Assembly: GCF_045037415.1 (NCBI RefSeq)
Contig: NZ_CP173438.1
Reading direction: 5' to 3' (one strand)
Source of the DNA: Escherichia coli
GTDB taxonomy: Bacteria > Pseudomonadota > Gammaproteobacteria > Enterobacterales > Enterobacteriaceae
Length of the DNA: 64,000 nt
The translations under genes and the position numbers were made by a program. The notes under the pieces were generated by a model. That model saw nothing but the letters and a program-made list of their open reading frames with translations. It searched no databases and was not told the origin of the DNA. Positions 57,633 through 60,900 of the stretch are shown one piece after another (positions within the stretch are counted from its first letter, which is position 1; every line of letters begins with the position of its first letter).

Positions 57633-57950
57633 ATGGATGAAAATGCTTTAGGGTTTACCTCATACTGGCGCAACTCGCTTGCGGATGCTGAGTCAGGAAA
57701 GGGCAGTTTTGAACGGAAAGACGCCAAAAATTTCACTCACTGGCATGGGATAGCGGCGGGACGTCTTGACGAAGCGATTGTCAGTAAATTTTTTAAGGGA
57801 GAAAAAGACGATGTCGAAACGGTCGATGTCATCTTGCGCCCAAAAGTTTATTTCCGGTTATTGCAGCATGGTAAGGACCGTTCTGCAGGTGCGCCTGATA
57901 TTGTTACCCCGATAGTGACGCCAGCCTTGCTAAGCCGTGAGGGTTTTTTA
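57633..57950 (+). pseudogene. N-terminal segment of the helicase-nuclease gene, separated from the main ORF by a -1 frame change
   Basis: Frame-0 ORF 57633..58187 reads as plausible protein up to ...[16 protein letters not shown] and then becomes Arg-rich low-complexity; the frame holding the 1050-aa ORF opens at 57941 right after a TGA. Adding one T to the T6 run (57944-57949) gives one continuous ORF 57633..61147. Confidence 0.6.
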
Positions 57951-57994
57951 TATCCGACGCCAGCGACCTCCATTCCCAGAACCTGCTTGAACCT

Positions 57995-60900
57995 TTGCCA
58001 AAAGGAGCATTTTCGATTGGTGAGATTGGGCAGTATGACAAATACAAGACGACCCATACCACGTTCTCTATCAACTTTGATGACAGCGTTGATAAGACTG
58101 CCGAAACGGATGAAGAACGGGAAGCACGATATGCCGCCTTGCAGCAGGAGTGGCGTCAATATCTGTATGACTCAGAGAGGCTACTGAAGAGCGTTGCCGG
58201 CGACTGGATTGAAAAACCTGAGCAATATGAACTCGCTGAGCACGGTTATATTGTTAAAACGGCTCAATCTGGCGGTGCCAGTTTCCATATCCTTTCTCTT
58301 TATGATCACCTGCTTGTTTGCAATAAGGATGTGCCGCTCTTCAATCGCTTCGCCTCGCGAGAGGTTCATGCTGCAGAGTCTTTGCTGGCCCCTGGAGCAA
58401 AATTCAGCGACAGGCTTGGACACTCCGGAGATAAGTTTCCGCTGGCAAAGGCTCAGCGCGATGCCTTAAGCCATTTTCTGGATGCTAGACATGGCGATAT
58501 CCTTGCTGTTAATGGCCCTCCGGGAACCGGAAAAACCACGCTGGTGCTTTCTATCATCGCCACGCAGTGGGCCAGAGCGGCTCTCGAAAAATCTGAGCCT
58601 CCGGTTATTATCGCGACTTCAACGAATAACCAGGCTGTAACGAACATTATTGAGGCATTCGGGAAAGACTTTTCGCAAGGTTCAGGTGCGATGGCCGGGC
58701 GATGGTTGCCAGAGCTGAAAAGCTTCGGCGCTTATTTTCCCTCAAGCAGCCGTAAAGCTGAAGCAGCCAAAAAATATCAAACTGAAGATTTCTTCAACCA
58801 GGTTGAGTCAAAAGAGTATGTAGAAGATGCACTGCTGTTTTATCTCGAGAAAGCTAAGGCAGCTTTTCCTGAAAAAGAGTGTTCATCCCCTGAAAAGGTC
58901 ATTGAACTCCTGCATGGTCAGTTGGCAGCAAAATCCGAGCAACTGATAAGACTGAACGCAACATGGCAAACGTTAAGCCAGGTATGGGCTGCGCGTGAGC
59001 TTATTGCTAACGACATTGAGCAATATCTCGATAATTTAAATAAATTACTTTCCGGACAAGAACAAAAAATCACTCTACTGAAAAGTGCTAAAACGGAATG
59101 GAAAAAATATCGCGCCGGTGAATCACTGATCTATTCATTATTTTCCTGGCTCCCGGCGGTTCGCAGTAAGCGACAGTACCAAATACAACTGTTTCTCGAA
59201 GATAAATTAGGGGCGCTGATTGCAGGAAATCAGTGGTCTGATCCTGAAACTATCGAACGTAATATTGATGGGCTGCTCAATTCCGCTGAGCGCGAGCAAA
59301 CAACATACCGGCAGCAGATTGACTCCGCCCATGAAATCATTCTTAAAGAACAGCAGGCGGTTCAGGAGTGGCAGAGACTGGCTCTTGATTTAGGGTATGA
59401 GGGCGACGAGGAACTGAGCTTCTCACAGGCCGATGAACTGGCTGATACGCAGATTCGCTTCCCTGCATTTTTACTGACGACTCACTACTGGGAAGGTCGT
59501 TGGCTGATGGATATGGCCAGCATTGATGATCTGCAGGAAGAGAAGAAGAAAAAAGGCGCTAAAGGGGTAACCGCCCGTTGGCAACGTCGAATGAAACTCA
59601 CTCCATGTGTGGTGATGACATGCTATATGCTGCCCGGCAATATGCAGATAAGTGAGCACAAAGGACAGCGTAAATTCGAGAAAAGTTATTTGTATGATTT
59701 TGCCGATTTACTCATTGTCGATGAAGCCGGGCAGGTGCTTCCTGAAGTGGCTGCTGCCTCGTTTGCATTAGCTAAGAAGGCATTAGTGATTGGCGATACG
59801 GAGCAGCTCCCGCCAATATGGAGTATTGCTCCTGCGATTGATGTCGGTAACATGCTGGCGGAAAAAATTCTGTCTGGCAGTACGCAAGAAGAGATTACCG
59901 AGAAATATACGGCAATCGCAGACCTTGGTAAAAGTGCCGCATCTGGCAGCGTTATGAAAATAGCGCAGTTTGCTTCACGCTATCAATATGATCCCGAACT
60001 GGCTCGTGGTATGTACCTATATGAACACCGCCGGTGCTACGACAATATTATTGGATACTGTAATACGCTCTGCTATCACGGTAAGTTGTTGCCTAAAAGA
60101 GGGCGTGAAGAGAGCAATTTAATGCCCGAAATGGGGTATCTCCATATTGATGGTAAAGGTGAGCTGGCAAGTAGTGGAAGTCGATATAATTTGCTTGAGG
60201 CTGAAACGATAGCGGTCTGGTTGGCAGAGAACCAGCAAAATATTGAAGCGCATTACGGTAAATCGCTTCATGAAGTTGTCGGTATCGTGACGCCTTTTAG
60301 CGCTCAGGTATCCACTATCAAACAGGTGCTGGGCAAACAAGGTATCAGTACAGGCGCGAATGAAAAATCGCGCACAGTGGGCACCGTGCACTCTCTTCAG
60401 GGAGCGGAAAGAGCGATTGTGATATTCTCGCCAGTCTATTCAAAACATGAAGACGGCGGGTTTATTGATAGCGATAACAGCATGCTGAATGTTGCAGTCT
60501 CCCGTGCGAAGGACAGTTTTCTGGTCTTCGGCGATATGGACCTGTTTGAGGTCCAGCCAGCCTCATCTCCACGGGGATTACTGGCAAAATACCTCTTTGA
60601 GTCAGAGAAGAATGCGCTCTCTTTTGATTATAAAGAGCGTAAGGATTTAAAAACCGCCGGGACCAAAATCTACACACTTCATGGTGTGGAGCAACATGAT
60701 AATTTCCTGAATCAGACATTTGAAAATACCAGTAAACACATCATGATAGTTTCTCCATGGCTGACCTGGCAAAGGCTGGAGCAAACCGGTTTTCTTGATT
60801 CCATGATTGCGGCGTGTTCACGTGGAGTTAACGTCACGATAGTCACTGACAGAAGCTACAACACTGAACATAATGATTTTGAGAAGCGAAAAGAGAAGCA

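Follow-up and report, generated by a model that had tools for sequence, protein, structure and literature searches.

Contingency loci, in which surface or restriction–modification (RM) genes undergo homopolymer phase variation, are known from Neisseria and Haemophilus. Mokosh, the defence family of interest here, was reportedly first described by Millman et al. in 2022; the family name Mokosh type II, whose single protein is MkoC, is taken from PADLOC-DB. Methylation-induced nanopore basecalling and consensus errors are a documented class in bacterial assemblies (e.g. Lohde et al. 2024, PMC11610573; strand-specific mismatch at modified bases, PMC11610603). In sequence type 131 (ST131) of Escherichia coli, strain EC958 encodes M1.EcoMI (forming N6-methyladenine, m6A) and M2.EcoMI (forming 5-methylcytosine, m5C), which share 100% identity with the methylases of Eco31I (Forde et al. 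2015, PMC4659465). In EC958, single-molecule real-time (SMRT) sequencing detected GAG-m6A-CC methylation at 100% of GAGACC sites, and GGT-m5C-TC is predicted on the opposite strand; the system is encoded on GI-leuX and occurs in clades A and C of ST131 (PMC4659465). The stretch analysed here, hereafter the window, is 64,000 nucleotides of E. coli DNA (contig NZ_CP173438.1) and contains a mkoC gene written in two overlapping frames. We find that the frames part where one base is missing from an Eco31I recognition site, and the split is very probably a nanopore consensus error at this methylated motif. The features of the split gene are the following.

57633-61147, plus strand: mkoC (Mokosh type II; superfamily 1 (SF1) helicase with a C-terminal PLD nuclease), written in two frames (PADLOC MkoC; Pfam on the intact allele).
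57938-57940, plus strand: TGA in the downstream frame, which opens after it (translation).
57944-57949, plus strand: T6 run (codons GGT TTT TTA, G-F-L), not the site of the frame change (same T6 in UTI89, IAI39 and TOE17).
57979-57983, plus strand: GAACC, remnant of the Eco31I site GAGACC and true place of the frame change (alignment with UTI89 and strain 439; blastn against Esc16, A1.S1.18 and Esc11).
57981-58187, plus strand: out-of-frame tail of the upstream open reading frame (translation; the frame-0 match to the MkoC profile stops here).

Translation of the sequence as written gives two overlapping pieces of one gene, an open reading frame (ORF) at 57633-58187 and another at 57995-61147. 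The upstream ORF runs for 184 codons from ATG 57633 to 58187, and frame 0 has no likeness to any protein beyond approximately 57980. The downstream frame is open from just after the TGA to 61147, is without an ATG over about 250 codons and is listed with a TTG start at 57995, giving a product of 1050 aa. A preliminary description of the locus had reported the ATG 57633 ORF, the downstream frame opening after a TGA, the T6 run at 57944-57949 and the decay of frame 0 past about 57980, all of which are borne out. Its central proposal, a single helicase–nuclease defence gene split by a single-base frame change, also holds because both pieces match one PADLOC profile, MkoC (PDLC03924). The N-terminal 102 aa cover profile positions 1-104 (E=4e-30) and the downstream piece covers positions 118-1135 (E=0, 1541 bits). 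The 13 unmatched positions in between, 105-117, correspond to frame-0 residues, suggesting that frame 0 is valid until about 57980.

The intact allele of UTI89 is one coding sequence of 1171 aa in RefSeq (WP_000344108.1), in which Pfam places AAA_11 (272-490 and 679-729), AAA_12 (777-969) and PLDc_2 (1028-1138) on a single polypeptide. PGAP names the product 'AAA domain-containing protein' and annotates it as intact in UTI89 and as 'frameshifted' in strain 439 and in Esc16, two genomes whose sequence here is identical to that of the window. Among 5426 complete E. coli genomes, a query of 801 nt located the mkoC locus in 879. Judged from sequence, the gene is an ordinary Mokosh type II mkoC, encoding an 1171-aa helicase fused to a PLD nuclease with a predicted anti-phage role.

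Comparison of the frames with a full-length homologue, as the preliminary description had suggested, places the junction at 57980/57981. Around the split, the alignment with UTI89 contains a sole difference, one G: the intact form reads CCCAGAGACCTG and the window reads CCCAGA-ACCTG. The G is absent between 57980 and 57981, leaving the window form CCCAGAACCTG. It is base 3 of GAGACC, lies about 31 nt downstream of the T6 run and falls outside any repeat tract. With this G inserted, the protein agrees with WP_000344108.1 at every residue but one (L914R), and the repaired N-terminus matches the MkoC profile without a break over positions 1-291. The tail at 57981-58187 is thus best read as meaningless sequence made by the missing G.

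GAGACC (GGTCTC on the other strand) is the recognition site of Eco31I. With the methylated bases placed as in EC958, the lost G is the one that pairs with m5C and is the 5' neighbour of m6A. The alternative motifs EcoP1I (AGACC) and StyLTI (CAGAG), both type III, were dropped in favour of Eco31I, which is documented in ST131 and was found in Esc16.

We surveyed the site in the complete E. coli genomes, 868 of which (out of 5426) hold the 86-nt stretch around it. The site is intact in 857 genomes and carries the deletion, as an exact match to the window, in 11, namely strain 439 from Taiwan and ten Esc isolates; the carriers thus come from two projects only. The Esc isolates are escaper transconjugants, all made by conjugation of a CRISPR plasmid into one recipient, strain E1, for which the same paper has MiSeq data (NAR 2026, PMC12774652). 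The isolates themselves were read by nanopore, their assemblies were made with Flye, Autocycler and further long-read assemblers, and the words 'polish' and 'Medaka' are absent from the text of that paper (PMC12774652). Ten of at least 18 Esc isolates show the deletion, and the site is intact in Esc 5, 10, 11, 17, 18, 24, 26 and 28; chromosome length is practically equal in seven of these intact isolates, and that of Esc17 exceeds it by about 90 kb. Presence of the deletion is unrelated to the experimental groups tabulated in PMC12774652: it is present in Esc16 and absent from Esc17, and present in Esc12 and absent from Esc10 and Esc11. Likewise, in a near-identical Taiwanese trio it is found in strain 439 and the site is intact in strains 446 and 463 (one of three). 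In both sets, assemblies of one clone disagree about the deletion.

Over 64 kb, only three positions separate Esc16 from the window. Esc16 encodes both Eco31I methylases in intact form, the endonuclease and McrBC, and carries the fimB::ISL3 insertion that marks clade C. The Eco31I genes were absent from the neighbourhood of hsd and mrr in Esc16 and are located on the leuX island. In that island, a resistance block comprising ISEcp1-blaCTX-M-15, a Tn3 remnant, IS26, aac(6')-Ib-cr and blaOXA-1 separates the Eco31I endonuclease gene from the two methylase genes.

The other Eco31I sites of these assemblies show the same irregularity. We compared a stretch of 19.4 kb, from mkoC to the pap operon, that contains six Eco31I sites (36 nt). 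Among six Esc assemblies, four of the five variable places are Eco31I sites, the fifth being an A8/A9 run. The mkoC site is spelled GAGACC or GA-ACC; the second site GAGAACC, GAACC or GAAACC (GAGACC in A1.S1.18, another relative); the third GGTTTC or GGTCTC; and the site in papC GGTTTC, GGT-TC or GGTTCC (GGTCTC in A1.S1.18). The papC deletion in Esc16 is the opposite-strand equivalent of the mkoC event (GAGACC to GA-ACC), and PGAP calls papC 'frameshifted' there. The Taiwanese trio has eight variable places, made up of all six Eco31I sites in the region plus two C6/C7 runs. The probability that the variable places cluster in Eco31I sites by chance is 6e-11 for the Esc set and 1e-15 for the Taiwanese set. 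Three spellings in one clone, none of them the expected motif, indicate a confused consensus and not mutation. Moreover, among Esc derivatives of one parent, the states of two sites occur in each of the four possible combinations, which requires recurrent change.

These observations can be accommodated by a simple sequence of events. The window chromosome would be of the ST131 clade C type, with its Mokosh type II gene on a tRNA-Phe island, and its Eco31I system would place m6A in the top strand (GAG-m6A-CC) and m5C in the bottom strand (GGT-m5C-TC). Nanopore basecalling and consensus would then most likely have misread the doubly modified dinucleotide, with one base dropped. Under this scheme, the window assembly would be nanopore-derived from a strain that methylates the site; its reads would carry GAGACC, and the real chromosome would encode an intact MkoC of 1171 aa. 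Of the three explanations offered in the preliminary description, a sequencing error is the one that the evidence favours.

Differences elsewhere in the window bear on the likely type of assembly. A 24-kb megablast of window positions 40000-64000 against the 5426 complete genomes returned no perfect match, the best hits having one gap and one mismatch; the window thus comes from a close relative of the Esc/E1 clone. At 8892, an intergenic homopolymer is A8 in the window and A9 in both Esc16 and A1.S1.18; at 47694, another is G4 in the window and in A1.S1.18 and G5 in the Esc clone. Such homopolymer under-counts fit a long-read consensus and suggest an unpolished long-read assembly as the source of the window. 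The window further contains a substitution of its own:

60372, plus strand: private G (T elsewhere), Leu914Arg in MkoC (0 of 813 genomes carry G).

This position lies in the context AAATCGC[G]CACAGTG, just upstream of the helicase motif TVHSLQGAE, and is T in all 813 genomes that have the stretch. By-eye comparison of its flanks with the ST131 methylation motifs GATC, CCWGG, CANCATC, AACN4CTTT, RTACN4GTG and GAGACC found none that fits.

Several points weigh against a consensus error. The verdict rests on the comparison of assemblies, and both the sequencing technology and the Eco31I status of the window are taken from its near-identical relatives, with nanopore data documented for the Esc set. 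The Eco31I sites of the window at 18080, 28159, 32206 and 61738 are read correctly, and any such error must therefore be context-dependent and not universal. Our literature search for a report naming GAGACC/GGTCTC as a nanopore error motif found none, only general papers on methylation errors. Finally, L914R lies in the same gene and could hint at relaxed selection on a gene that is truly dead.

The strongest rival is a real one-base deletion that inactivated mkoC, leaving a true pseudogene in a lineage in which Mokosh is unneeded or costly, as the preliminary description had also considered. The base is indeed missing as written, PGAP calls identical sequences 'frameshifted' pseudogenes, and the private missense change L914R, alone among the observations on the window, would fit a pseudogene in decay. 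An inactivating mutation is thus possible, but we regard it as unlikely: assemblies of a single clone differ in whether they show the deletion, this is so in two independent projects and regardless of experimental lineage, the deletion sits in a motif with multi-allelic noise at almost every instance in these assemblies, and 857 of the 868 genomes are intact here. A related and still less probable reading takes the variation between assemblies as real heterogeneity, with the G:m5C pair of doubly methylated Eco31I sites acting as a genuine in vivo hotspot of indels and transitions in ST131. If this were the case, real loss of Mokosh, of PapC and of the EptA-like enzyme would be frequent in sub-populations.

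The third explanation in the preliminary description was a phase-variable switch by slippage at the T6 run, which it took as the probable site of the frame change. The run does lie just after the downstream frame opens, and one added T produces a mechanically continuous ORF. However, UTI89, IAI39 and TOE17 have the identical T6 in their intact alleles, and the latter two, which are divergent, also carry GAGACC; comparison of the run length in homologous loci thus revealed T6 in every allele inspected, with no variation. A query of 87 nt containing T7 had no match at ≥99% in any of the 868 genomes, and intact genomes were two positions off. Against the MkoC profile (first 313 aa), the extra-T repair scored 353.2 bits and the G repair 370.6 bits, 17 bits apart, and the peptide that the preliminary description had derived from an extra T is wrong over 12 residues relative to the G-repaired protein. 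An invariant T6 and a G missing elsewhere, outside the repeat tract, lead us to reject slippage in the T-run, and a phase switch has a negligible probability. Equally negligible is a natural two-protein locus (an N-terminal protein of about 110 aa and a TTG-initiated one of 1050 aa) or programmed ribosomal frameshifting, for which two overlapping ORFs exist and TTG 57995 is available, but in 857 of 868 genomes the homologue is one ORF of 1171 aa and not naturally two genes, the MkoC profile crosses the junction unbroken, and the two-frame layout is confined to the 11 assemblies that carry the deletion.

The mkoC gene belongs to a small island whose other features are the following.

55646-55721, plus strand: tRNA-Phe, integration site of the mkoC island (ARAGORN; RefSeq annotation of identical loci).
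55919-57181, plus strand: tyrosine integrase of the island (ORF list; WP_001218820.1 in identical loci).
61256-62755, minus strand: phosphoethanolamine-transferase gene, after mkoC (RefSeq annotation).
61738-61743, plus strand: another Eco31I site, GAGACC, in the phosphoethanolamine-transferase gene (intact in the window; GAGAACC in strain 439).

In the window and in ST131, the module of integrase, mkoC and phosphoethanolamine transferase occupies tRNA-Phe, beside dsbD and dicD; in UTI89, the same module is found at tRNA-Leu beside ahr. The integrase accessions differ between the two locations, WP_001218820.1 in window-type loci versus WP_001219005.1 in UTI89. In strain 439, the phosphoethanolamine-transferase gene is annotated as 'frameshifted' owing to the GAGAACC miscall at the equivalent of window position 61738.

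Broken genes are annotated at several further places in these genomes. The RefSeq ST131 'frameshifted' calls for papC in Esc16 and for the eptA-like gene in strain 439 are single-base miscalls in Eco31I sites, and the genes are intact in clone-mates. For papC of strain 463, also intact in clone-mates, the cause of the 'frameshifted' call is a C6/C7 homopolymer run. In A1.S1.18, mutL is annotated as two coding sequences and nnr as frameshifted (equivalent to about 19596-24804 of the window), and this stretch differs from the window by G5-to-G4 and C5-to-C4 homopolymer changes. The breaks in mutL and nnr probably arose in assembly instead of reflecting a real mutator genotype.

The Eco31I motif is also strongly under-represented in the window. 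Its four sites (18080, 28159, 32206 and 61738) compare with 15 expected under a maximal-order Markov model, and the median hexamer count in the window is 28 versus 4 for GAGACC/GGTCTC. Restriction avoidance, loss by m5C deamination or E. coli codon bias could account for this scarcity; in nanopore assemblies, part of the deficit is due to miscalled sites.

The split is no new biological feature, and the biology of the locus is little affected: the strain most likely carries an intact, ordinary Mokosh type II gene such as is present in about 16% of complete E. coli genomes (868/5426). The motif-specific observation may be useful to curators of ST131 assemblies. The Eco31I motif of ST131 would be a systematic trap for nanopore-only assemblies, and the resulting 'frameshifted' pseudogene calls in RefSeq concern a defence gene (mkoC), a fimbrial usher gene (papC) and a phosphoethanolamine-transferase gene. 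Surveys of defence or virulence gene loss could take such noise for inactivation or phase variation, and studies of outbreaks or of evolution that rely on the number of differences among ST131 isolates could likewise be misled.

Set against described systems, the locus agrees with Mokosh type II in encoding a single large protein, an SF1 (AAA_11/AAA_12) helicase with a C-terminal PLD nuclease, that matches the MkoC profile over its full length, and in lying on an integrase-bearing island at a tRNA gene. No difference is specific to the locus, the interrupted ORF of the window being put down to artefact. The relation to the type IIS Eco31I system of ST131 (M1.EcoMI, M2.EcoMI and R.EcoMI; PMC4659465) is that its recognition site is where the base is missing; the genes themselves lie outside the window, on GI-leuX, and would matter through methylation that confuses the basecaller and not through any action on mkoC. 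Contingency loci share with mkoC a short homopolymer near the 5' end of the gene and a frame change close by, but the tract here is short (T6), invariant across alleles and not the position of the frame change. The likeness to methylation-induced nanopore errors is that these, too, keep to a motif that the strain's own methyltransferases modify, fail to recur from one assembly of a clone to the next, and give rise to false differences and false pseudogenes. What would distinguish the present case is the motif, GAGACC/GGTCTC, with m6A on one strand and m5C at the adjacent base pair on the other, and the occurrence of single-base deletions and insertions besides C-to-T calls.

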